A stretch of 31,349 nt of DNA from a virus (Duplodnaviria; Caudoviricetes): positions 1 to 31,349 of IMG/VR virus record IMGVR_UViG_3300012667_000232, one strand, 5' to 3'. Each line of letters begins with the position of its first letter. The stretch's first letter is position 1. This document shows positions 1,839 to 31,142 of the stretch, piece after piece. Below the pieces are notes generated by a model. That model did no database searches. It was not told where the DNA came from and saw nothing but the letters and a program-made list of their open reading frames with translations. Position numbers and translations under genes: made by a program.

Positions 1839-2590
1839 TGCTTACTCAAATAAAGTTTATACAACTCACGAAAGCCTTCAAACTGAATCGATTCTTTTAG
1901 CAGTTGACGTTTTCGGTCACTCATGCGTTCAACCATTCCTTTACTCAATTGCTGTTCGTTGAAGACTGTCTTTCGCGCCTTTGCTTTGCAAAGATTGTAT
2001 TCGTCGTCCGTGAATGTTTCAGCCGTTATACGCTTACTTTCTTCCAACCAACGCATCATTGACACACCGCGCAATTCTAACGTCGTAAATTTGCTTTGTT
2101 TGAAGCTCTCAACGTCCTCTGCTAACATCCTTCTCCAACTGTCATCGTTTACCGCCATTTCGTTTTCCTTTATTTGTTGTGATTTTTCTTCAATTGCTTC
2201 CGCGATTTCGCGTTGTATTTGCAGGTTCGCTTTGTCTCGGTGTGGTTTGTAAGCCGTCAACACGTCGCCTATAAACGAAACGCTCAAAGCTCCGAAGTGT
2301 TCGCATTTCTTTGATAGTTCGTTCGCAGCGTTCATTTCAAACGCAAGGTTGAAGTGTTCAAACGTAACCCATCGAAAGTGCTTAACGATGAACTCGTGCA
2401 ACATTTGCAATAGTTGCGCTTCTGGAAGTGCTATTCCGTACATAGCGCAAACCTTCGAACATAACTTAACAAACGTTGGAAGGTCGTAGTCTGCTACAAA
2501 CGCGCTTTCGCGTTCTGCACGATCAATCCTTTGTGTAGTTGTGAGCGTCTGCGTATATGCGTTGCGCAGCGTCTGAATCGAATTTTCCAT
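1835..2590 (-). CDS. Hypothetical replication-module protein, possibly helicase loader/inhibitor-like (likely start MENSIQ at 2590)
   Basis: A-rich leader before ATG 2590, located directly downstream of the initiator-like domain. The function is inferred from position only. Confidence 0.55.
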   Translation of the reverse strand: MENSIQTLRNAYTQTLTTTQRIDRAERESAFVADYDLPTFVKLCSKVCAMYGIALPEAQLLQMLHEFIVKHFRWVTFEHFNLAFEMNAANELSKKCEHFGALSVSFIGDVLTAYKPHRDKANLQIQREIAEAIEEKSQQIKENEMAVNDDSWRRMLAEDVESFKQSKFTTLELRGVSMMRWLEESKRITAETFTDDEYNLCKAKARKTVFNEQQLSKGMVERMSDRKRQLLKESIQFEGFRELYKLYLSKQ

Positions 2591-2954
2591 TTTTGATTTT
2601 AGTTTGAGTTTGGTTTGTTTGAGTTGTTGCAAATTTAGTTAAGTCCCACGTTCGCACCGCCGCCTTCCAGTCTTTCATTTGATTCCTTCCCACCTTCCAA
2701 CCGTTTGCCTCGTAGTGCGCGTGGAACTTTTCAGTAAAGGCGAGAGCGTCGTCCTTGCTTAACTTTTCACACGCGTAGTCGAATATCTCAACGACTGTTG
2801 GTTTCTTGAATAGCGACTTCTTTTCTTTCGCTATTAGCGTTGGTGTGTTTGTTGGAACGGACAAACGAATAAGTATGTCGTTTATCTTTTGTTCCTGTTC
2901 CTGCGCCTTCGCTTCGAGTATCTCGATTCGTCTTTTGAGTTGTAGTATTAGCAT
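2523..2954 (-). CDS. Stand-alone C-terminal domain of a phage replication initiator/replisome organizer, with an N-terminal coiled coil
   Basis: The motif FKKPTVVEIFDY...FHAHYEANGWKVGRNQMKDWKAAVRTW is typical of the C-terminus of phage replication initiators. Confidence 0.7.
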   Translation of the reverse strand: MLILQLKRRIEILEAKAQEQEQKINDILIRLSVPTNTPTLIAKEKKSLFKKPTVVEIFDYACEKLSKDDALAFTEKFHAHYEANGWKVGRNQMKDWKAAVRTWDLTKFATTQTNQTQTKIKNGKFDSDAAQRIYADAHNYTKD

Positions 2955-3148: not shown

Positions 3149-3351
3149 CAGTCCCACCCCTCCCCTTTCGCGTCGTCGTCTGCGTAGTCCCACTCGTGGC
3201 AGTCGTCGCACAAAACTATTTCTCCTTCGTCGTCGATAAACTCATAAGCAGAGTCCCAGTCTTCGAATTGTTGATCCTGCAAGACAAAGTCTACGCGTTC
3301 GCCTAAAAGTTCTTTGTCGCAGTTGGGACAAAATGTTAAGTCGCTTTTCAT
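3148..3351 (-). CDS. Small acidic zinc-ribbon protein
   Basis: CPNC...CDDC pairs, very D/E-rich, with a strong A-rich leader. Confidence 0.7.
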   Translation of the reverse strand: MKSDLTFCPNCDKELLGERVDFVLQDQQFEDWDSAYEFIDDEGEIVLCDDCHEWDYADDDAKGEGWD

Positions 3352-3362
3352 AGTTGTTTGAT

Positions 3363-3896
3363 TTATTTGATTTTAGATTTCTTTTTAAGTGCTAATTCTT
3401 TCTTGTATTCGATATGTTCGACAAACTTACTAAAAAATATCATTGGTTTAGCATAACCTATCTCAGCAAGTAAAAAACAAATACGTTTTACATTGGCTCT
3501 GTATTGTCTATCCCACTCAACCTGTGCAGATGCTTGATTGATTCCGTGCAGAATGGTAGCGTGGTCTTTCTTGTAGCGGTCGCCTACGTTCTTGAGTGAA
3601 AGCAAGTAGCAAGGACGAACAAGAAAGAATATAATTTGTCGTGCGGTTACTATCTCGCGCTTTCTCGTTGGCGAATACAACGCTTGTGAAGGTACTCCAA
3701 GAACTGAACACGTTACGTCTTCCAAAGCACTCCAGAACATATCGCGTTCGTTCTCCATTTCTTGCTGTTGTTTAATTTGATCCGCAGTCAGTCTTTCGTA
3801 CTTTGGAATTATCATCGTCCACAATAGTTCGAATCTTTCCATATGTCTGAGAGGTATCATCTCCGCTACTTCCTGTCTGATTTGCTCGTTAGTCAT
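3363..3896 (-). CDS. Protein with a DnaA C-terminal (domain IV) DNA-binding HTH
   Basis: RKREIVTARQIIFFL...SLKNVGDRYKKDHATILHG matches the DnaA domain IV signature (R..ARQ...SL..IG..F..DH.TV.HA). There is no AAA+ domain. Confidence 0.85.
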   Translation of the reverse strand: MTNEQIRQEVAEMIPLRHMERFELLWTMIIPKYERLTADQIKQQQEMENERDMFWSALEDVTCSVLGVPSQALYSPTRKREIVTARQIIFFLVRPCYLLSLKNVGDRYKKDHATILHGINQASAQVEWDRQYRANVKRICFLLAEIGYAKPMIFFSKFVEHIEYKKELALKKKSKIK

Positions 3897-4128: not shown

Positions 4129-4574
4129 AATTTGAAAAGTGATTTTACCACGCGTTGAATGAAGTTGAGTTGTTTTTTCTTTGCCTTCATTGTTGGCGCA
4201 GGTGCTGGTGATAATGTCATTGTTTGACCTGTAAACATAATGTTTTTACTACTTGATATTTTGCCTGTCTTTGGCTTTGGTTGGTTGAAAAGAGTTGCTT
4301 GTCTTGTCTTTTCCATTTGACGATTGAAGTTTATATTATTAAACTTCTTTCTTTCTGATGAAAATAATTCGTAACGTTCGGTGTAGACACGCTCAACCGC
4401 TTTGTATGTTCCATCTTTTTCAGTCCAAAAGAAACCCGCTCTTCTTAGTGGTGTTCCATAGGCACGGGAAGCCTTCATATTTGTCAAAGCTTCGGTAGGT
4501 GTTTCTCCGTTATTAATTCTTTTACAAAATTCTTTTACTCTTTCGATGTTAAACGCTTGTTGTTTTGCTCTCAT
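4125..4574 (-). CDS. Basic hypothetical protein
   Basis: 149 aa ORF with an A-rich leader and an ATGA overlap downstream. Confidence 0.65.
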   Translation of the reverse strand: MRAKQQAFNIERVKEFCKRINNGETPTEALTNMKASRAYGTPLRRAGFFWTEKDGTYKAVERVYTERYELFSSERKKFNNINFNRQMEKTRQATLFNQPKPKTGKISSSKNIMFTGQTMTLSPAPAPTMKAKKKQLNFIQRVVKSLFKL

Positions 4575-4617
4575 TTTGATTTTAATTGTATGGTTTATTA
4601 TTCATTAAGTGCCATAT

Positions 4618-4650
4618 AAGGCGATTATGTATGATATAACCGCCTTTTTA
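4618..4650. terminator. Intergenic hairpin, possible intrinsic terminator or processing site
   Basis: AAGGCG-aTTATgt atg atATAAc-CGCCTT, with a T-run on the + side. It lies between the SSB-like gene and the 4125-4574 gene. Confidence 0.45.
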
Positions 4651-4661
4651 TGACAAGTTAT

Positions 4662-5460: not shown

Positions 5461-5751
5461 TTAGATGCTGTCTTCGAAGATGTTAACATCGAAACTAAAA
5501 ACGATTCCGTCTTTGGTTAGTTCAACAACTTCGAGTTCAAACTCAGGATCTAACTTTCTCCAGAAGCGACCGAGCAAATGGATTTTAAACACGTTGTCGT
5601 TGTCGTCAATGAAGACAAGTTGTTGATGTTCTCCAACGTCGAACCACCCTGTTTCGTAGTCGTGGTAAGCTAAGGCTATTGCTTTGATTCTTTCGTTCAA
5701 CGTGCGTATGTCGTCAGAGCTGAAACAGTAATTGATTTTAGGACAGTACAT
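5461..5751 (-). CDS. Hypothetical protein (start MYCPK at 5751)
   Basis: A-rich leader CTAAAATCAAATCAAACT before the ATG. Confidence 0.65.
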   Translation of the reverse strand: MYCPKINYCFSSDDIRTLNERIKAIALAYHDYETGWFDVGEHQQLVFIDDNDNVFKIHLLGRFWRKLDPEFELEVVELTKDGIVFSFDVNIFEDSI

Positions 5752-5901
5752 AGTTTGATTTGATTTTAGTTGTTGCAAATGTATTCAATTAAATGGTCGT
5801 TCCAACGCGCTTCCGAAAGTTTTTGACATTTTTCAATGTTGGCGCTTATCTCGTTGTGCGTTAGGTTGTACGCATTAGCGCAAGACGAAACGCAAACAAA
5901 G

Positions 5902-6129
5902 TTACTTTTCTGTTGGCTCTGGTAGTTCCTTCCAATGCGACGTATTAAGTTTGAGGAATACTCGTTCAAGTTCTTCAATTCGGGCGTTGCAAAACGTATC
6001 CCTGCTACTTGTGCCGTCTTTCTGATTACCGTAGTAATTTTGTGCGGTAATGATTCCGTTAACAAGAATTTGTACTTCGTCTTCAAAGAGAAAAAGTGAT
6101 TTGTAAAAATTGGCTCTTTCATTGTTCAT
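5902..6129 (-). CDS. Hypothetical protein (start MNNERAN at 6129)
   Basis: A-rich leader and helical composition. It overlaps the alternative ORF 5766-6122. Confidence 0.55.
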   Translation of the reverse strand: MNNERANFYKSLFLFEDEVQILVNGIITAQNYYGNQKDGTSSRDTFCNARIEELERVFLKLNTSHWKELPEPTEK

Positions 6130-6142
6130 TTTGTTTTTAGTT

Positions 6143-6427
6143 TTAGATTTCTTTTGATTCAATTATTTCTTCGCGTGGTGTTGCTGACTTGATGCGGTCG
6201 TATGCGTTCTTTGCATCTTCCAAGATGTTGTACGACATATGAAACTCTCCGTTGACTTTGATGACATAGTACATATCGGTCAATGTCGTTTTTTGAATTA
6301 ATTCTACTTTCATTTTTGGTTCTTGTTTTGTGTTTAAAAAGTTATCGTTAATGTTGTCAAGGTCGTTAAAAAATTCTTGAACTTTAAAACTTCCAGACCT
6401 TGTAAAAAAAACAGGGGTGTCTTTCAT
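6143..6427 (-). CDS. Hypothetical protein (second in-frame start MKVELIQ at 6313)
   Basis: ATGA-coupled at 6427, with an internal A-rich leader before 6313. Confidence 0.6.
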   Translation of the reverse strand: MKDTPVFFTRSGSFKVQEFFNDLDNINDNFLNTKQEPKMKVELIQKTTLTDMYYVIKVNGEFHMSYNILEDAKNAYDRIKSATPREEIIESKEI

Positions 6428-6537
6428 TTTGTTGTGTGATTTGGTTGTTGTTCTAATTGTCTTGTTGATTCGTCAATCGTTCCTGCGATTAACATTCCTG
6501 CGAAAAGCATCGCGATAAAGAGTAGTGTTTTTTTCAT
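6424..6537 (-). CDS. Small membrane/signal-peptide protein (37 aa, MKKTLLFIAMLFAGMLIAGTIDESTRQLEQQPNHTTK), absent from the ORF track
   Basis: Translated by hand. It has a basic N-terminus, a hydrophobic helix and an ATGA overlap with the next gene. Confidence 0.65.
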   Translation of the reverse strand: MKKTLLFIAMLFAGMLIAGTIDESTRQLEQQPNHTTK

Positions 6538-6549
6538 TTGATTATTTGG

Positions 6550-6759
6550 TTATGAGTATTGAACGATTTCGATTTCTATCTCTGGCTTGATTCCGTCTGA
6601 AGATGCGTAGTAAAGGTCTTCGCGGATATTATCTAACGAGTTGTATGCAGCGTGTTCCATTAAGCAATTGATTGCTTTGTTCTCGTCGTTGAATTCATAA
6701 GACCAATCAATTCTTATTGCTTGTCCTGCGATGTGTGTGGTTTTTGTTACTTGGTACAT
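6550..6759 (-). CDS. Hypothetical protein, first gene of the leftward early operon
   Basis: Long AAAAC-rich leader immediately downstream of a consensus promoter. Confidence 0.65.
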   Translation of the reverse strand: MYQVTKTTHIAGQAIRIDWSYEFNDENKAINCLMEHAAYNSLDNIREDLYYASSDGIKPEIEIEIVQYS

Positions 6760-6776: not shown

Positions 6777-6784
6777 TATCTTTG
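6777..6784 (+). promoter_or_regulatory. Possible rightward -7 element (TATCTTTG)
   Basis: Matches TAnnTTTG upstream of the rightward genes, but there is no correctly spaced -33 element, so it may be incidental. Confidence 0.35.
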
Positions 6785-6796
6785 TTTTGTTGAGTA

Positions 6797-6826
6797 CAAA
6801 TCTATGCTAACTTTTGTAATATCCAA
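6797..6826 (-). promoter_or_regulatory. Bacteroidota sigma-70-type promoter driving the leftward early operon
   Basis: The minus strand reads TTG (6826-6824), 19 nt, TAGATTTG (6804-6797), matching the TTG-N19-TAnnTTTG consensus. Confidence 0.8.
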
Positions 6827-6872: not shown

Positions 6873-7277
6873 ATGAACGTTAATACATATAAAAAAAGTT
6901 ACAAAAAAAGTAGTGCGAAGCGTAAAATTGCACCCGAAAGCGAAGCGAACCAACAAGAGATAGTCGTAAAATACCTTCGTTTAGCATATCCCGACGCGTT
7001 GTATTGCGCTTCTGCGGGTGGTATGCGAACAAGTTACTTGCAAGCGATCAAGATGAAGCGCACAGGTTATGTAAAAGGCTTTCCCGACCTGTTTATATAC
7101 GAACCACGCGGTGAGTTTCACGGTCTTGCTATTGAAATGAAGAAAGAGAAAGGTGGTACTGCATCGCCAGAGCAGAAGCGTTGGCAGGAGCAATTGAGAA
7201 ACAGGGGGTATTGTTCTTATATTTGTAAGGGTAATGAAGAGGCAATCAAAGTTATCGACGAATATTTTAATGGGTGA
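6873..7277 (+). CDS. VRR-NUC domain nuclease (PD-(D/E)xK, putative Holliday junction resolvase)
   Basis: SEANQQ...GFPDL...IEMK...SPEQKRWQEQL...GY is the VRR-NUC pattern. Confidence 0.88.
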   Translation: MNVNTYKKSYKKSSAKRKIAPESEANQQEIVVKYLRLAYPDALYCASAGGMRTSYLQAIKMKRTGYVKGFPDLFIYEPRGEFHGLAIEMKKEKGGTASPEQKRWQEQLRNRGYCSYICKGNEEAIKVIDEYFNG

Positions 7278-7777
7278 CACTTGACCACTACATAGAAGGA
7301 CATTACAAAAAGTTCAAAGAACTTGCGAAGAATATCTCGCGAGGTGAGGATTACTACGAAGACTTGCTTCACGATTCTTTGTTGTCAATGTTTGGAAGTA
7401 AACACATTGAGAATCTAATCGACACAGGCGACTTTGAGTTCTATTTAATCCGTGTAATGTATCTCGCAGTCAATTCGCCAACCTCACCATTCTACAAACA
7501 AACAATCGCGTGGAACAGGAATAGACGCGATTTTAAAGAGTACGCGCACGAAGTCGACAAGACGTGGTTAGGCGCGCGAATGACAAACGAGCAGTTAGAC
7601 ATTCTAATTAGTCGTCTGAGCGAGTTTGAGAGGCTTATCTTTCAAGAATACATCTTTGAAGGTTTCACCTACCGTGAACTGTCAAAACAAACGGGAATAC
7701 CAATGCCGTTCCTTTACAGAACAATAGACAATATCAAACAAAAAATAAGAGCAAATGTTATTCGCAAAAAGCAATGA
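7274..7777 (+). CDS. ECF-like RNA polymerase sigma factor (probable late-gene activator)
   Basis: Region 2-like EDLLHD...FYLIRVM and region 4 HTH LSEFERLIF...EGFTYRELSKQTGIP...YRTIDNIKQKIR. GTG start. Confidence 0.78.
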   Translation: MTLDHYIEGHYKKFKELAKNISRGEDYYEDLLHDSLLSMFGSKHIENLIDTGDFEFYLIRVMYLAVNSPTSPFYKQTIAWNRNRRDFKEYAHEVDKTWLGARMTNEQLDILISRLSEFERLIFQEYIFEGFTYRELSKQTGIPMPFLYRTIDNIKQKIRANVIRKKQ

Positions 7778-8189: not shown

Positions 8190-8219
8190 CTTATAAGGCA
8201 ACTTTTGGAAGTAACAACG

Positions 8220-8227
8220 TATATTTG
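8220..8227 (+). promoter_or_regulatory. Bacteroidota -7 promoter element TATATTTG
   Basis: Exact TAnnTTTG in an intergenic region directly before a structured leader. No clear -33 element. Confidence 0.6.
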
Positions 8228-8230
8228 TTA

Positions 8231-8301
8231 CAGCCAAGCAACGCGAAACTACCCCCTTTTATTTTTGCTTGGCGGCTGAAATAATTGGGGGTATATTTTT
8301 T
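8231..8301 (+). ncRNA. Candidate short structured RNA or attenuator
   Basis: Terminator-like stem TACCCCC(8250-56)/GGGGGTA(8287-93) followed by a T-run. The 5' GCCAAGCAA(8233-41) is complementary to TTGCTTGGC(8265-73). Confidence 0.5.
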
Positions 8302-8339
8302 AATTGAAAATGAAAGAAACTGAATAAGAACACAAACCA

Positions 8340-8510
8340 CCTTCGTAAGTCAAAGCGAAGTAACCAATGACTACACTTGCAATACATCAATGCTTGGACC
8401 GAGCAACTGCTCTTTTAAGAGCGAGAGTAATCTTTTTCGGGGGAGCTTTTTCTTTTGTTCTTTCTTTATAGTGCTTACACGTTTTCTTTGTTCTTTTCTT
8501 TTCTTTGCAT
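8340..8510. other. Candidate replication origin (non-coding palindromes plus a polypyrimidine tract)
   Basis: Part of the largest intergenic gap (8190-8545). It has overlapping inverted repeats at 8391-8422 and repeated TTCTTT(T)GTTCTTT with strong strand asymmetry. Confidence 0.35.
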
Positions 8511-8545: not shown

Positions 8546-9187
8546 ATGCTTACAATAACTAACGAGGACAATATGAACTTAATGTCAAGGTATCCAGATA
8601 ACTACTTTGATTTAGCAATAGTTGACCCACCTTATGGAATAGGAGAATCAAGTGCTAAAATACACACAAGGCATCACTCTCAAAAAAAATACAGTATTAA
8701 AGATTGGGATAATGAACCACCAAGCCAAGATTATTTTAATGAACTAATAAGAGTATCTAAAAATCAAATTATTTGGGGTGCTAATCATTTTATAGAAAGA
8801 ATTAATAAAAATAGTAGTTGCTGGATTGTTTGGGATAAAGATGGATTTGGAGACCAAGCTGATTGTGAAATTGCATGGACTTCGTTTAAGACCGCAGTTA
8901 GAAAGTATAAATATACTTGGAATGGTTTTAGACAAGAAGACATGAAAAATAAAGAGATAAGATTTCATCCAACCCAAAAACCTGCTGCCCTTTACAAGTG
9001 GCTCTTATCAAACTATGCGAAGGAAGGCGATAAAATACTCGACACTCATTTGGGTAGTGGCTCAATCGCGATAGCGTGCCACGATTACGGCTTCGACTTA
9101 ACCGCCTGTGAACTTGATAAAGAATACTTTGACAAAGCAATGCAACGCATAAACAACCACACCGCACAAATAAAAATGTTTCAATGA
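8546..9187 (+). CDS. Orphan DNA methyltransferase (N6-adenine/N4-cytosine, beta class)
   Basis: DPPY catalytic motif precedes HPTQKP and the SAM-binding DTHLGSGS. No cognate restriction enzyme is adjacent. Confidence 0.92.
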   Translation: MLTITNEDNMNLMSRYPDNYFDLAIVDPPYGIGESSAKIHTRHHSQKKYSIKDWDNEPPSQDYFNELIRVSKNQIIWGANHFIERINKNSSCWIVWDKDGFGDQADCEIAWTSFKTAVRKYKYTWNGFRQEDMKNKEIRFHPTQKPAALYKWLLSNYAKEGDKILDTHLGSGSIAIACHDYGFDLTACELDKEYFDKAMQRINNHTAQIKMFQ

Positions 9188-10346: not shown

Positions 10347-10502
10347 ATGAGCGAAAACAAATTAAACTTTTTGAAATCACAAATCACCGCCTTCAATCCA
10401 ACGTGGACGAAAGAGCAGGTTGAGATGGAAGCAATAAGAATATACAACGAAGCAAACACAATCGACGACGATGACGAAGGGTGTTTGTATTGCGGATCGT
10501 AA
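10347..10502 (+). CDS. Small protein (51 aa) ending DDDDEGCLYCGS, absent from the ORF track
   Basis: Translated by hand: MSENKLNFLKSQITAFNPTWTKEQVEMEAIRIYNEANTIDDDDEGCLYCGS. It starts 3 nt after the upstream stop. Confidence 0.7.
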   Translation: MSENKLNFLKSQITAFNPTWTKEQVEMEAIRIYNEANTIDDDDEGCLYCGS

Positions 10503-10509
10503 AAGAACT

Positions 10510-10626
10510 GTACCTGCCTAAAACGCAGAGTCCCTTGCAGGTGGTCGCGACATCGTTGCAAGTAGCTGTGATAGACCTCGCAAAGGATGCTACCACATAA
10601 CACCAAGCTAAAGTCGGGTGTATTTT
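10510..10626. ncRNA. Candidate structured non-coding RNA
   Basis: GC-rich intergenic segment with several stems (see findings). The family is not recognised. Confidence 0.4.
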
Positions 10627-10667
10627 CAACAAAAATGTTTTTATTGTAGATATTAAACAACAAACGA

Positions 10668-14869: not shown

Positions 14870-16104
14870 TGGCAATTACAATAGACGACCAACCATACGA
14901 ATACACTCCAGTCGGACAACGATTGATGCTCGTTGCATCTTCAACCAACGTAGCAAATGTAGGCTTTCGCTTCGTGTTCGACTTCGGTTCGTTCCAAGTC
15001 AACGTACAACCTAACGCAGAGAACAAAGGGGTGTTAGATTTAGCACCGATATTTCGTGAATCATTACAACACGATGTAGGCGCTGCAGACGCGACAATGA
15101 ATGACGAATACACAAGCGTTGCTTTTATTTCTTGCACGATAAAAGAAGGGTGGCTCGTTGACGGAGTGTTCACAGTAAGCGGTAGCGGAATGGCTGACAT
15201 TGACGACGTGTACGCCTTCCTTGCCGAATATCAAGTAAGCAACGGCTACAAGCCAGATCCGAATACTCGTTATGCTTTGAACGGCGTCACGAAATACTTA
15301 TTAAGCGAACGCACAACGGACACGCACAAATGGAGCGAAGCGGCAGCGCGTGGATTGTCAAGTAACTGGGTTTACATACCAACGCGATTAGCTGACTTTG
15401 GACAGTTGTATTCTATTTCAAATAACGGATTGTTAGGCGACAACATAGCGACTGACTTATTTGTGTCAACTTACGATAACACCAACACGTTAATTGAAGC
15501 AGTCAATTACGCACTTTCTACAGAGTTAAACAGCGTTTCTCGTTTTGGTGCTTATCCACAAAACTTAATCGGTGGCGGTTTAGATTTTACCAATGTCAAA
15601 TACTACACAATACAAGCAGGCGAATCTATTTCGCCACCTATCTACACAGCTGCTTCACGCGTCTATTGTTTTTATATTGTTCCTGACGATTGTCGCTTTG
15701 ACAATGTTCGCTTGGGTTGGACGAATACTTGCGGTGGGATTGATTACTTTAACTTCACGAAGAAGTCGGAACTATCGTTCAACTACGATCGTAAGCAATA
15801 CCAAAAAGTTATTGGTTCTTACAATACGGCAACGTTTGGTTTCAACACCTACGACAGAGGTGCAACCGACCGTTACGTCACAACAACCAAAGGACTACAA
15901 ATAAACAGCGACTGGGTATCTGTTGGAGAGTTCAATCTACTTCAAACGCTTTGTCGTTCCAACGACGTGTTCATTATCAATGACGACGGAACACAAACAC
16001 CTGTTCTTGTAGATACTCAAAACTTTGTTATCAAAGACGAAAGATATTCGAAACTTTACAACGTTACTTTGAATCTTAAATACTCACAACCTGTAGGTCT
16101 ATGA
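14869..16104 (+). CDS. Tail structural protein (distal tail/Dit-like, Bacteroidota type)
   Basis: C-terminal W.N..GGIDYFNF...INSDWV...L..S..VF pattern, beta-rich. Confidence 0.6.
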   Translation: MAITIDDQPYEYTPVGQRLMLVASSTNVANVGFRFVFDFGSFQVNVQPNAENKGVLDLAPIFRESLQHDVGAADATMNDEYTSVAFISCTIKEGWLVDGVFTVSGSGMADIDDVYAFLAEYQVSNGYKPDPNTRYALNGVTKYLLSERTTDTHKWSEAAARGLSSNWVYIPTRLADFGQLYSISNNGLLGDNIATDLFVSTYDNTNTLIEAVNYALSTELNSVSRFGAYPQNLIGGGLDFTNVKYYTIQAGESISPPIYTAASRVYCFYIVPDDCRFDNVRLGWTNTCGGIDYFNFTKKSELSFNYDRKQYQKVIGSYNTATFGFNTYDRGATDRYVTTTKGLQINSDWVSVGEFNLLQTLCRSNDVFIINDDGTQTPVLVDTQNFVIKDERYSKLYNVTLNLKYSQPVGL

Positions 16105-20733: not shown

Positions 20734-21321
20734 ATGAAAAAAATTAAAGTTATCGAATACGGAATAGACGAAGGTGGTCTATTAGGAGTGTACGCTATCA
20801 GCGTAGTGGAACAACCTGCAATAGGTGTTGACTTCGTTGCACTAAGCGAACAACACAACGTGAAGTTCAAAGAAGATTTCAGAGGTCTTTTGTACGGAGC
20901 TTTGCTTATTCCCGATCAACTTATTTACCGACGCAACGACGAGACGGACGAGGAATACTATGTGAAGTATTCGAAGGATACCATTCGTGCAATTGCTTAC
21001 AATTATCTCAAACAAGCAAACCAAAACAACGCAACGGTTGAACACGCGAAAGTGGTTGACGGAGTGTCTTTGGTTGAGACGTGGATAATCGAAGGAGAGA
21101 ACGACAAGAGTAAAAACTTCGGGTTTGACCTTCCAGAAGGTACTTGGTTCGGTTGCATGAAAGTAGACAACGAAGAGGTGAAGAAGCAGATTCAAAACAA
21201 AGAGGTTCTTGGCTTTTCAATCGAAGGAAACTTCATCGCAGAAAAAGAAATGTATTTGAATAAGCACGAAGAATTTGCAGCACTTCTTGATGAAATAAAC
21301 GAACTTCTAAAAGGTGAATAG
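20734..21321 (+). CDS. Prohead maturation protease (XkdF-like serine peptidase)
   Basis: AISVVEQPAI...GALLIPDQLIYR...EH...GTWF...GFSIEG. Confidence 0.85.
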   Translation: MKKIKVIEYGIDEGGLLGVYAISVVEQPAIGVDFVALSEQHNVKFKEDFRGLLYGALLIPDQLIYRRNDETDEEYYVKYSKDTIRAIAYNYLKQANQNNATVEHAKVVDGVSLVETWIIEGENDKSKNFGFDLPEGTWFGCMKVDNEEVKKQIQNKEVLGFSIEGNFIAEKEMYLNKHEEFAALLDEINELLKGE

Positions 21322-21498
21322 ATGAACATCGAGGCAGGTGGTTTCTTTAAGTTGGAGTTGTTCAACGATGACGCTAACCTGTTTCTTAATGCTCTCACGA
21401 AGATTACAAATGAGGGCGGTAAAATGGGTTTTAAGACGTACGGATTGAGTGAAGATGAATTGAAAGTATTGAATACTATTCTCGACAATTTAGGATAA
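21322..21498 (+). CDS. Small hypothetical protein (58 aa, MNIEAGGFFKLELF...LDNLG), absent from the ORF track
   Basis: Translated by hand. The ATG immediately follows the protease stop codon. Confidence 0.6.
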   Translation: MNIEAGGFFKLELFNDDANLFLNALTKITNEGGKMGFKTYGLSEDELKVLNTILDNLG

Positions 21499-21527
21499 AA
21501 AAAACGGAGGGTAATCACTCCCTCCGT
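21497..21527 (-). terminator. Intrinsic terminator on the minus strand
   Basis: Perfect 8-bp stem ACGGAGGG/CCCTCCGT with an 8-nt loop. The U-tract lies only on the minus strand (A-run at 21497-21504). Confidence 0.8.
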
Positions 21528-21570
21528 CAAACCTAAAAATCAAATTTCACTATGAAAAAGCGAATTGTGA
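21497..21570 (-). ncRNA. Candidate antisense small RNA (about 70 nt)
   Basis: Bounded by a minus-strand consensus promoter and a terminator inside the plus-strand late operon, with no ORF. Confidence 0.65.
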
Positions 21571-21572
21571 AA

Positions 21573-21605
21573 CAAATATACCTCTTTTTATATCTACTCA
21601 TCAAA
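21573..21605 (-). promoter_or_regulatory. Bacteroidota promoter for the antisense sRNA
   Basis: The minus strand reads TTTG (21605-21602), 21 nt, TATATTTG (21580-21573). Confidence 0.7.
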
Positions 21606-21623
21606 CAAACAATTAACAGAATT

Positions 21624-22193
21624 ATGAATTTACGAGAAAAAGTAAACGCTCTATTCGCAAAGCACAACGTTTCTCTCTCTGCTGAAGAAGTAGTTGAGGT
21701 GAAGCAAATGGTTGAGGCGATCCTAGAGGACGGGACAAGCATCTATTCAGACAGCGACGTTTGGGCAGCAGGTGTTCGTGTATTCGGCAAAGACGCAGAA
21801 GGAAACGAGGTTGCGTTAATGGACGGAGAATACAAGACAGCTGAAAGCATCATTGTAGTTGTTGAGGGTGGTCTTGTGACTGAATTAAAACCAATGGAAG
21901 AAGAGTCTCCAGAGGTTGAAGTAGTAATCGAAGAAGAACAAACTTCTGAGGTTGTTGCTGAAGAATCACTAAGCAAAGAGGTTGAAGGACTTCTTTCGCT
22001 TGTTGCTAAGTTGGAAAGCGAACTTGCTGACATTAAGAAGGCAAACGCAGAACTTTCAAGCGAAGTAACAAAATTAAGCGCTCAACCTGCAGCGTCTTCA
22101 ATCAAAGAAGTAAAACAGGCAAAACAAACACCTTCAAAGCCATACGCTAAAATGTCGGCTGAAGAGCGTTTCTTATTCAATCTTAAAAAATAA
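21624..22193 (+). CDS. Capsid scaffolding protein (likely start MNLREK at 21624, upstream in-frame ATG at 21552)
   Basis: Acidic protein with DGEY..., a coiled coil and a basic C-terminus, located between the protease and MCP. Confidence 0.7.
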   Translation: MNLREKVNALFAKHNVSLSAEEVVEVKQMVEAILEDGTSIYSDSDVWAAGVRVFGKDAEGNEVALMDGEYKTAESIIVVVEGGLVTELKPMEEESPEVEVVIEEEQTSEVVAEESLSKEVEGLLSLVAKLESELADIKKANAELSSEVTKLSAQPAASSIKEVKQAKQTPSKPYAKMSAEERFLFNLKK

Positions 22194-29837: not shown

Positions 29838-31142
29838 CTAACCCACAACATATTGTCCATAACTTGGATTCAACTCAAAGTACATTCGCATCATTATCGC
29901 GTCGGCAACGTCGGGAGAAATTCCTTCGCGGTTCTTGATAACGTCCTTCGGTGTTACCTGCAACTTTCCGTCTACGTCCGCGCGGTGTCGTTTAATCATT
30001 TCTAATTCACGCACGATTTGTTCTTTGCGCGTACTGGATAAGATAGTGACTTTGTTTTCTTCGACGTATTGCGCAAGTTTATAATAACATTCGCTTTTCA
30101 AGTTTTGGTATTGTGGGTGTTTGGGTTTAGATCCGTTGACGAACCCTCGACATTTAAGAAAATCAACCACTCCAGCGCCGATGCCATCCTCATCTGCGAC
30201 GACATCCTGTAACAAAATGTTATGTTCTTTTGTTACGAGGCGAATCTTGTTTACGACCTCATCTAACGACGCTCTATTCAATTCAATTATATCGATAATT
30301 GTTAGACCGTGCCAAACGCAAATAATTGTTCTGTCCTTTCCAAATCGCGCAATGTCGGCTGTGATGTATTTCTTTCCTTCAATGAGTTCATTGCGGAACA
30401 TACGCAACAGGTTGTCCGTTGAGAACAATTTGTCGCTGTCGTCGTCGAACTCCCAGTTTCCTTCGAGCAGACGTTTGCGGTCGTACTCTGGAAGTTTCTG
30501 CAAGTTCTCCAAATACGTTTGCGAGATATAAGGATTGTCCGTTGGAAGTGCTTGAACAAATGCGCGGTCGCTTCTTAAATTGCCTTTTTGGTGAGCAAAA
30601 TAAAAGTCATTGTACAACCAACCTTTCGAAGGGTTACAAGTCATTAATCCCTTCGCTCTGTCGTTAATCAATTTGTAACGTACACGCGACTGCAATATAT
30701 CGATACAACGCTTCGAAACTTCGGCTACCTCATCTACGAAGTAGTCTGTGATTTCAATAGACCCAAATCTTTGAAAGTCGGGGTCTGAGGGCATATCTGC
30801 CAAGTCCATTAATATCGTTTGGCTTCCGTTATACCACTTAATAACGTGGTCTTGTCCATTGTAGGTATAATGAACGTTCGGTTTCAATCCGTGTAAGGTG
30901 CAAAGTTCAAAGAAGGTTTGCATTGTGGACAAGCGCAACTTCTTTAATTCAGCACGACCGATTAATCCTTTTGTCCCTGGGTATTTTAGTCTTCGTTTTA
31001 TTTGCCAATCGCAACCTAAAAAAGACTTTCCACTAAACACACCTCCACCATACAAGACCTGCGCAATAGGACTTTCATAAGATAGAAGTTCTAAAGCGTG
31101 TTTCTGTTTGTCGTGGTAAATTATTTCGCGTGGTTCATTCAT
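29838..31142 (-). CDS. terL: Terminase large subunit (second copy within the terminal repeat)
   Basis: Identical translation to 24-1328. Confidence 0.93.
   Translation of the reverse strand: MNEPREIIYHDKQKHALELLSYESPIAQVLYGGGVFSGKSFLGCDWQIKRRLKYPGTKGLIGRAELKKLRLSTMQTFFELCTLHGLKPNVHYTYNGQDHVIKWYNGSQTILMDLADMPSDPDFQRFGSIEITDYFVDEVAEVSKRCIDILQSRVRYKLINDRAKGLMTCNPSKGWLYNDFYFAHQKGNLRSDRAFVQALPTDNPYISQTYLENLQKLPEYDRKRLLEGNWEFDDDSDKLFSTDNLLRMFRNELIEGKKYITADIARFGKDRTIICVWHGLTIIDIIELNRASLDEVVNKIRLVTKEHNILLQDVVADEDGIGAGVVDFLKCRGFVNGSKPKHPQYQNLKSECYYKLAQYVEENKVTILSSTRKEQIVRELEMIKRHRADVDGKLQVTPKDVIKNREGISPDVADAIMMRMYFELNPSYGQYVVG

Follow-up and report, generated by a model that had tools for sequence, protein, structure and literature searches.

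Known antisense RNAs of phages mostly act on one gene, and to our knowledge the ordering of gene expression in phages of Bacteroidota is poorly described. The small RNAs (sRNAs) sar of P22, OOP and aQ of lambda and STnc6030 of BTP1 are each described as antisense to one phage mRNA, and VpdS of VP882, PreS of lambda and 24B_1 as trans-acting, Hfq-linked phage sRNAs of Proteobacteria (PMC12197685). In Bacteroides thetaiotaomicron, a family of paralogous sRNAs called FopS (Rfam RF04319) has been reported, whose members are 65-70 nt long, possess a canonical promoter and bind the start regions of susC mRNAs; FopS-10 blocks translation via binding beside the start codon, a FopS copy was also recorded in one phage, and, as far as the available text of that report goes, the distribution is given as Bacteroidaceae only (PMC11697453). 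GibS, which is host-encoded, measures about 145 nt, has additional hairpins as well as a second seed, and is described as having metabolic targets (PMC7366714). Initiation of translation in this phylum is reported to make use of adenines at -3, -6, -12 and -13, not of Shine-Dalgarno pairing (PMC6847099). In the open-access literature we found no report of a phage sRNA that silences the phage's own early genes through a common leader.

Here we analysed a stretch of viral DNA of 31,349 nt, hereafter the window, which represents a complete phage genome; the genome is circular and 29,814 bp long, and 1,535 bp are repeated at the window's ends. The minus strand carries genes from about 29,000 round to 6,760, and the plus strand the middle and structural genes. 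We use the label "early" for the minus-strand block, based on its host-type promoters, its small ORFs and a replication initiator of the NGO0469 family; the terminase large subunit gene (24-1328 / 29838-31142, minus strand) lies on this early-gene strand, opposite the structural genes. "Scaffold" and "capsid" are names given by position, since among protease, scaffold and capsid only the protease has a family match. From the promoter boxes, the A-rich gene starts and the nearest cultured relatives, the Nonlabens phages P12024S/L (28% capsid identity), we infer a Bacteroidota host; a host search with the capsid protein in GTDB genome contigs, which covers close relatives only, returned no relative. 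At 6777-6804, where the early and middle operons diverge, host-type -7 boxes stand face to face on both strands, and the starts predicted from them overlap by a few bases. Two long intergenic stretches (8200-8480 and 10500-10640, the latter found in some relatives only) contain inverted-repeat-like and conserved segments and are possible additional RNA elements.

Based on the letters alone, a model (the sequence-only reading) had described a complete minus-strand transcription unit of promoter, body, hairpin and U-tract between the protease and the scaffold gene. The unit (21497..21605) is present as described and its location is correct, although a 58-codon ORF lies between the protease and the unit. 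The promoter reads TTTG-N21-TATATTTG (21573-21605, minus strand). To place the RNA start we used the reported position of the -7 box at -12 to -5 (PMC9723704). Taken alone the promoter pattern is not rare, with 2 matches in the window vs 1.0 expected and 30 of 100 shuffles reaching 2. Between the promoter and the hairpin lies the U-rich RNA body of ~41 nt, followed by a perfect 8-bp hairpin with an 8-nt loop (21504-21527) and the U-tract (21497-21503); the fold energy amounts to -21.3 kcal/mol (z = -3.6), and none of 200 shuffles is as good. The features of the unit, the surrounding genes and the predicted targets are summarized in the table.

Table. Features of the antisense unit, neighbouring and related genes, and predicted target sites (positions in the window; energies include opening energies)
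Feature	Position	Strand	Remarks
Predicted 72-nt small RNA	21497..21568	-	start placed 4 nt past the -7 box; length predicted from motifs
-7 promoter box, Bacteroidota type, TAnnTTTG	21573..21580	-	77/77 loci
-33 box TTTG	21602..21605	-	TTTG 39, TTTA 37, other 1, of 77 loci
Intrinsic terminator, 8-bp stem and U-tract	21497..21527	-	one-directional in the window's clade
Anti-start-codon heptamer	21552..21558	-	predicted in the loop of a weak 5' hairpin; unpaired probability about 0.9
Second pairing segment, complementary to A-run/TCAAA leader motif	21529..21544	-	two core motifs in 70/70 unique units
In-frame ATG upstream of scaffold	21552..21554	+	likely by-product of the anti-AUG
Conserved box within promoter spacer	21586..21596	+	candidate late-promoter element
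Protease	20734-21321	+	PF14550
58-aa ORF (58 codons), converging on the terminator	21322..21498	+	between protease and unit; stop overlaps the U-tract
Scaffold gene	21624..22193	+	named by place between protease and predicted major capsid gene; no family match
Sigma-70/ECF-like gene	7274..7777	+	phrog_1740 E 7e-10; TIGR02937 E 3e-9, below the TIGR02937 cut-off
Best predicted target: start of 67-aa Cys-rich ORF, ATG 3351	3341..3376	-	-17.7 to -20.2 kcal/mol
Second predicted target: leader common to ATG 6129 and ATG 6122	6112..6150	-	-12.5 to -13.8 kcal/mol; 18/21 genomes
Predicted target: leader of 251-aa ORF, ATG 2590	2588..2606	-	-8.5 kcal/mol; 21/24 genomes
Weaker predicted target: ATG 5751	5749..5769	-	-8.6 kcal/mol; 10/22 genomes; own -7 box 5776-5783
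Weaker predicted target: 36-aa hydrophobic ORF, ATG 6537	6525..6555	-	-8.3 kcal/mol; 7/21 genomes
Weak predicted target: ATG 4574	4565..4595	-	-6.8 kcal/mol; 4/8 genomes

The sequence-only reading had proposed to look for the unit in related phages. Of 80 protease-bearing loci fetched, 77 extend to the scaffold, and the unit is kept in all 77 of these close loci. All 70 unique units of the close clade share an invariant 4-nt spacer downstream of the -7 box and have a purine (A/G) at +1. A 7-bp core of the terminator stem occurs in three compensatory forms in 43 units, all 43 being perfectly paired, and the remaining 27 units show a shorter G/C core. The anti-start-codon heptamer is found in 60 of the 70 units and is accessible (>=0.7) in 42 of the 60. 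The distance to the scaffold ATG, which is the one kept across clades, is fixed at 51 nt in 266/266 close-clade matches. Searches with divergent scaffolds located three further clades, in which hairpin, A/C-rich body and antisense -7 box follow one another as in the window: clade 2 (11/11 loci; scaffold identity about 55-60%), clade 3 (5/5 loci; about 40% to the window) and clade 4 (14/14 loci, one ending before the hairpin; 35-41% to the clade-2 query). The body sequence changes from clade to clade, both N positions of TAnnTTTG vary once clade 2 is counted, and in clades 2-4 no -33 box is evident at the window's spacing. Five loci more remote from the window (L299, L301, L304, L305, L667) showed no unit upstream of the scaffold. 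Taken together, we are highly confident that the unit represents a real and deeply conserved candidate sRNA gene.

Several observations concern its surroundings. In L304 (1610-1700) the sense strand carries a FopS-like U-rich stretch that is flanked by the protease stop and a terminator and could be a 3'-end-derived version. L332 (near 1170-1280) and L358 (a near match) display A-run, hairpin, leader-like body and antisense -7 box in the same order and have no protease or scaffold match, which suggests that the element type extends beyond the window's lineage. About 320 extra bases are present in the protease-scaffold gap, upstream of the unit, in 18 of the 77 close relatives (L015, L016, L020 and others). 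The 58-aa ORF has no match in Pfam or PHROG. Antitoxins of type I toxin-antitoxin systems overlap extensively with a small hydrophobic toxin gene that travels alongside. We rejected such a role for the RNA: its overlap with the 58-aa ORF comprises 2 nt of the stop, no membrane span is evident by eye, and the ORF, found in 80/80 close loci, is missing from clade 3, which keeps the unit. A cis-antisense RNA of the sar/OOP/aQ type was likewise rejected, as the RNA overlaps only an unconstrained upstream ATG that is lost in clade 4 and does not overlap ATG 21624.

A resemblance to the FopS family, absent from the sequence-only reading, emerged in the follow-up analysis. Rfam searches of the window returned no match at the gathering level and no match to GibS. 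Below threshold, the FopS model aligns end to end with the unit, scoring 20.9 bits vs a 56-bit cut-off (E = 0.79 against all Rfam, 0.012 for the genome), and the unit is the only match of this model in the window at E <= 10. None of 48 phage records reaches the cut-off, the best phage unit scoring 28.9 bits. The antisense of real gene starts scores as high on the model, up to 30 bits, and the sub-threshold score was therefore discarded as stand-alone evidence. Window 4575-4660 and G012 15229-15295 each carry a hairpin and a strong leader after a gene of the NGO0469 family; the antisense of stretches of this type reaches up to 30 bits without a promoter box and constitutes a false-positive class for this model.

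A pattern derived from the phage RNA was run against genome contigs (120 of about 300 stretches) and gave at least 9 matches with box and terminator; all 9 pattern matches listed belong to Paludibacteraceae or Ca. Enterocola, with FopS scores of 49-57 bits in the four genomes scored. FopS-like genes with a -7 box and a terminator were seen in L446, L463, L467, L468, L480, L496, L509, L520 and L533. The 5' part of the window RNA is identical to a 55-bit chromosomal FopS-like RNA in 26 of 27 aligned bases, and this chromosomal RNA fits the window's early leaders less well than the phage body does (14.3 vs 18.3). Chromosomal FopS-like genes also show short pseudo-ORFs on the opposite strand, as at 21552. 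Among 101 genomes of the order Flavobacteriales, FopS exceeds the cut-off in none. A model built from the phage units yields one match per phage in 9/9 records hit, no match in Nonlabens P12024S/L, and matches in 2/41 and 2/141 genomes, none a clear promoter-bearing copy, with 32-111 candidates scored per genome out of up to several thousand. Conversely, this model finds FopS loci (5/5 matches), a partly circular result as the genomes were picked by the phage-RNA pattern. Because the FopS seed mirrors a strong Bacteroidota start and the antisense of such starts scores alike, common descent and convergence are inseparable here.

To evaluate the predicted targets, gene starts were chosen by a heuristic, and pairing energies were calculated by an approximation that adds opening energies, not by IntaRNA; the target tests omit G015, in which the unit is cut off, and 8 records with fewer than 12 early starts. 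With opening energies added, the top 8 of the 48 window starts all lie on the early strand (p = 0.008 and 0.019 in two calculations), led by ATG 3351 (-17.7 kcal/mol) and ATG 6129 (-13.8), followed by values of -9.5 to -6.8, with the best late start at -5.7. Raw duplex energy sets apart ATG 3351 alone (-26.1, the best trans site of 5964 windows); ATG 5751, 4574, 6537 and 2590 (-15.8 to -12.2) are within background (5% quantile -16.6) and climb to ranks 4-8 of 48 when opening energies are included. Raw RNAduplex energies for all ATGs of 24 genomes give no consistent best target and are too noisy to name targets. According to these calculations, strong predicted pairing in the window is limited to two targets, ATG 3351, whose slot matches in 14/17 genomes, and ATG 6129. 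The latter opens a 75-aa ORF that overlaps, within 5766-6129, a 118-aa ORF starting at 6122 in a different frame; the two have a common leader, and both are open in several relatives. The gene at ATG 2590 has its own -7 box (2630-2637), and neither for its ORF nor for that at 3351 did our atlas searches suggest a function.

Local alignment of the RNAs with leaders gives a consistent picture at the level of gene classes, own early leaders beating own late leaders in 35/35 genomes. Among the free leaders of clade 1, 32% of 288 early vs 1% of 441 late ones score at least 15. The window RNA reaches this score with 2 of 265 host-type leaders, sampled from 400 kb of five Bacteroidota genomes that stand in for the true host, and the RNA of clade-1 variant B matched 12 of the 265. 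For the window, the top-3 alignment score for early leaders is 18.3 vs 11.9 +/- 1.2 for dinucleotide shuffles (0/100 as high), and the body shows no preference for late leaders (z = -0.2). In 11/11 genomes shuffled bodies score lower against early leaders (z 1.9-6.2; late leaders, z -0.2 to 2.3). Neither the start of the terminase gene, whose function is late despite its early-strand position, nor the replication initiator of the NGO0469 family (leader matches in 0/23 genomes) is a predicted target, and leaders match in 1/24 genomes for the DnaA-C-type gene and in 0/24 for the ORF at 2954.

These data bear on most of what the sequence-only reading had claimed. The matches that it quoted at ATG 3351, 5751 and 2590, and the weaker ones at ATG 4574 and 6537, all read as it gave them. 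Complementarity to several start codons exceeds chance for early leaders, but four of its five named sites are weak (-7 to -9 kcal/mol), and its target list contains the best site, ATG 3351, but misses the second-best, ATG 6129. Its expectation that early leaders pair better than late or host leaders is borne out, in the latter comparison with stand-in host genomes. The proposed silencing of early and replication genes agrees with the preference for own early leaders, whereas the replication genes do not emerge as targets.

In addition, the sequence-only reading had asked whether the unit covaries with early-gene leaders, and it does so at the level of clades but not inside clade 1. We set the RNAs of each clade against the leaders of each clade in a 4 x 4 matrix. 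With early leaders every own-clade residual is positive, and own-clade pairing comes first among 24 permutations in three related metrics, which is the best attainable with four clades (p = 1/24), and the target genomes outside clade 1 number 2, 2 and 1; for late leaders it ranks 12-17 of 24. Inside clade 1, own and foreign bodies perform equally (16/30, mean rank 0.51). Clade-1 leaders are fitted slightly better by clade-3 bodies (17.2) than by clade-1 bodies (16.9), and clade-4 bodies score higher with clade-2 leaders (16.7) than with those of clade 4 (16.1). A clade-specific leader style of the hosts could contribute to the clade diagonal; late leaders should share such a style yet do not.

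The main rival to a role on the phage's own early leaders, which we judge to be unlikely, is that the RNA acts mainly on host mRNAs as FopS does, masking strong host start regions, many of them of genes for exported or outer-membrane proteins, so that it reshapes the envelope, hides a receptor or frees ribosomes, and that the match to early leaders arises since these copy the strong-leader style of the host. The near-identity of its 5' part with chromosomal FopS-like RNAs of Paludibacteraceae fits such an action, as do FopS-model matches in Flavobacteriales that include the antisense of real host starts, several with signal-peptide-like N-termini. Moreover, each of five Bacteroidota genomes contains 3-10 occurrences of a leader-plus-start motif (reversed control 0 in four), and even 1% of host leaders would correspond to roughly ten targets. 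Yet the proportion of own early free leaders that are matched far exceeds that of sampled stand-in host leaders, no clade diagonal appears for the late leaders, which the same ribosomes translate, and clades 2 and 4 track their own early leaders despite the loss of the FopS-like seed. Such tracking also weighs against a purely local function, in which scaffold and capsid are kept off early, either because host polymerase on the antisense promoter occludes the interleaved late promoter or because the RNA captures, in cis, read-through transcript of the protease operon, with the body sequence being incidental. This possibility, which we consider quite improbable, would account for the fixed geometry, i.e. 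a box 9 nt from the -7 box in 4/4 clades and the constant distance to the scaffold ATG, and for the perfect complementarity of the RNA to its own locus (-57.3 kcal/mol). It leaves unexplained, however, why the body is conserved within clades and replaced between them, each time matching early leaders, and there would be no overlap between the RNA and a late transcript that begins near 21601.

Carrier-state control or superinfection immunity, with a resident non-lytic phage making the RNA and thereby silencing the early genes of incoming kin, appears very improbable to us. A host-type promoter can work without phage proteins, the seed performs alike throughout clade 1, as expected of a kin-wide immunity, and STnc6030 is described as an RNA precedent (PMC12197685); on the other hand, no capsid relative occurs in the GTDB genome contigs searched (close relatives only), no integrase was found among 26 ORFs scanned, and a weak repressor-like HTH is present in 6/25 genomes only. 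We give the least credence, and very little at that, to the explanation that there is no RNA gene and that the plus strand provides a translation start for a scaffold longer by 24 residues, resembling early leaders as all are translation starts. The caveat that the sequence-only reading had raised about ATG 21552 is valid insofar as this ATG shares the scaffold's reading frame, an open upstream ATG in that frame exists in 77/77 close loci, none of 79 unique blocks has a stop in frame, and the frame is open in clade 2, too, so that a degree of read-through translation is conceivable; as noted above, the antisense of a real early start can also reach 30 bits on the FopS model. As a scaffold start, however, it is largely answered by the lack of codon periodicity (entropy 0.62/0.51/0.72 vs 0.11/0.06/0.62 in the scaffold). 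In addition, of the 77 loci 17 have the window-type ATG at a shifted position and 7 lack it, the clade-3 loci L324/L363 carry an in-frame stop, and -7 box, spacer and U-tract point the other way. Since one clade (clade 4) has no ATG opposite the body, the long-scaffold explanation fails, and ATG 21552 is best read as the mirror of the anti-AUG.

On balance we lean towards a predicted phage-encoded, FopS-like anti-leader sRNA that is probably aimed at the phage's own early mRNAs and would damp their translation. Host RNA polymerase would transcribe the 72-nt RNA from the minus-strand promoter, and pairing in trans would start from the looped anti-AUG and the U-rich segment. The RNA would thereby cover the A/C-rich leaders and start codons of several early mRNAs, including the adenine stretch used for initiation, and ribosome loading would be blocked, as for FopS and GibS. 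As the -7 box of the unit is host-type, like the early-gene boxes at 6804, 5783 and 2637, the RNA could build up as soon as infection begins and act as a timer or damper, freeing ribosomes for late mRNAs. The conserved box 9 nt from the -7 box, of which a similar heptamer is present in 4/4 clades and similar boxes occur upstream of the plus-strand genes at 8546 and 9620, may be the late scaffold-capsid promoter, read by the sigma-like protein. Among RNA-library contigs of relatives (small shares of two runs), none spans 21510-21590, which is uninformative for a 72-nt RNA, and one ends at 21602, where the candidate late promoter would start, a weak hint from a single, strandless contig. Since the promoter of the unit is interleaved with the conserved box, RNA production and late transcription could be coupled, and late activation could switch the RNA either on or off. 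A more far-reaching and rather doubtful proposal is that this lineage runs its early-to-late transition by RNA: a bidirectional promoter ahead of the scaffold-capsid operon would make, in the reverse direction, a host-derived FopS-type sRNA re-tuned in each clade to cover the leaders common to the phage's own early mRNAs. Silencing of a whole class of genes in this way would be possible because Bacteroidota starts are free of Shine-Dalgarno sequences and A/C-rich.

If the favoured reading is true, a trans-acting RNA for the leader common to many early genes, its seed shifting together with those leaders between clades, would represent a different control logic and would link phages with the FopS/GibS regulation of gut Bacteroides, and the four natural seed-and-leader sets could guide the design of programmable repressors of translation in a phylum without Shine-Dalgarno control.

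Compared to the described phage RNAs, the unit has in common with sar, OOP, aQ and STnc6030 that these are phage-made small RNAs which repress phage genes post-transcriptionally and tune development; unlike in their descriptions, its predicted targets are several imperfectly matched leaders distant from the unit. VpdS, PreS and 24B_1 are likewise phage-encoded, trans-acting and affect the lytic programme, and that source describes none of them as covering a common leader of many own early genes (PMC12197685). GibS, as described, represses by an AU-rich, extended 5' seed pairing across start codons, as predicted here, whereas the phage unit is shorter (predicted 72 nt), phage-encoded and directed at predicted phage targets. 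Judged by its sequence, the element appears to resemble FopS in design yet fails the family cut-off. Common to both are a 5' pairing region followed by an intrinsic terminator, and complementarity to the start codons of multiple mRNAs, and the 72 nt predicted for the unit would come close to the 65-70 nt of FopS. The canonical primary-sigma promoter of FopS is mirrored in sequence by a -7 box in 77/77 loci and an exact -33 box in 39/77, and the conserved 5' seed described for FopS (R1/R1') by the window's match to the 5' region of the Rfam consensus; clades 2 and 4, in which the FopS seed is replaced, do not match it, and the antisense of ordinary gene starts gives matches of this kind as well. 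The FopS consensus fold consists of the terminator alone, and the window adds a 5' extension, a weak hairpin and the anti-AUG in its loop. Finally, FopS RNAs come from multicopy paralogues within a genome, bind RbpB and target host susC mRNAs, whereas the phage unit is single copy and its predicted targets are the phage's own early mRNAs.
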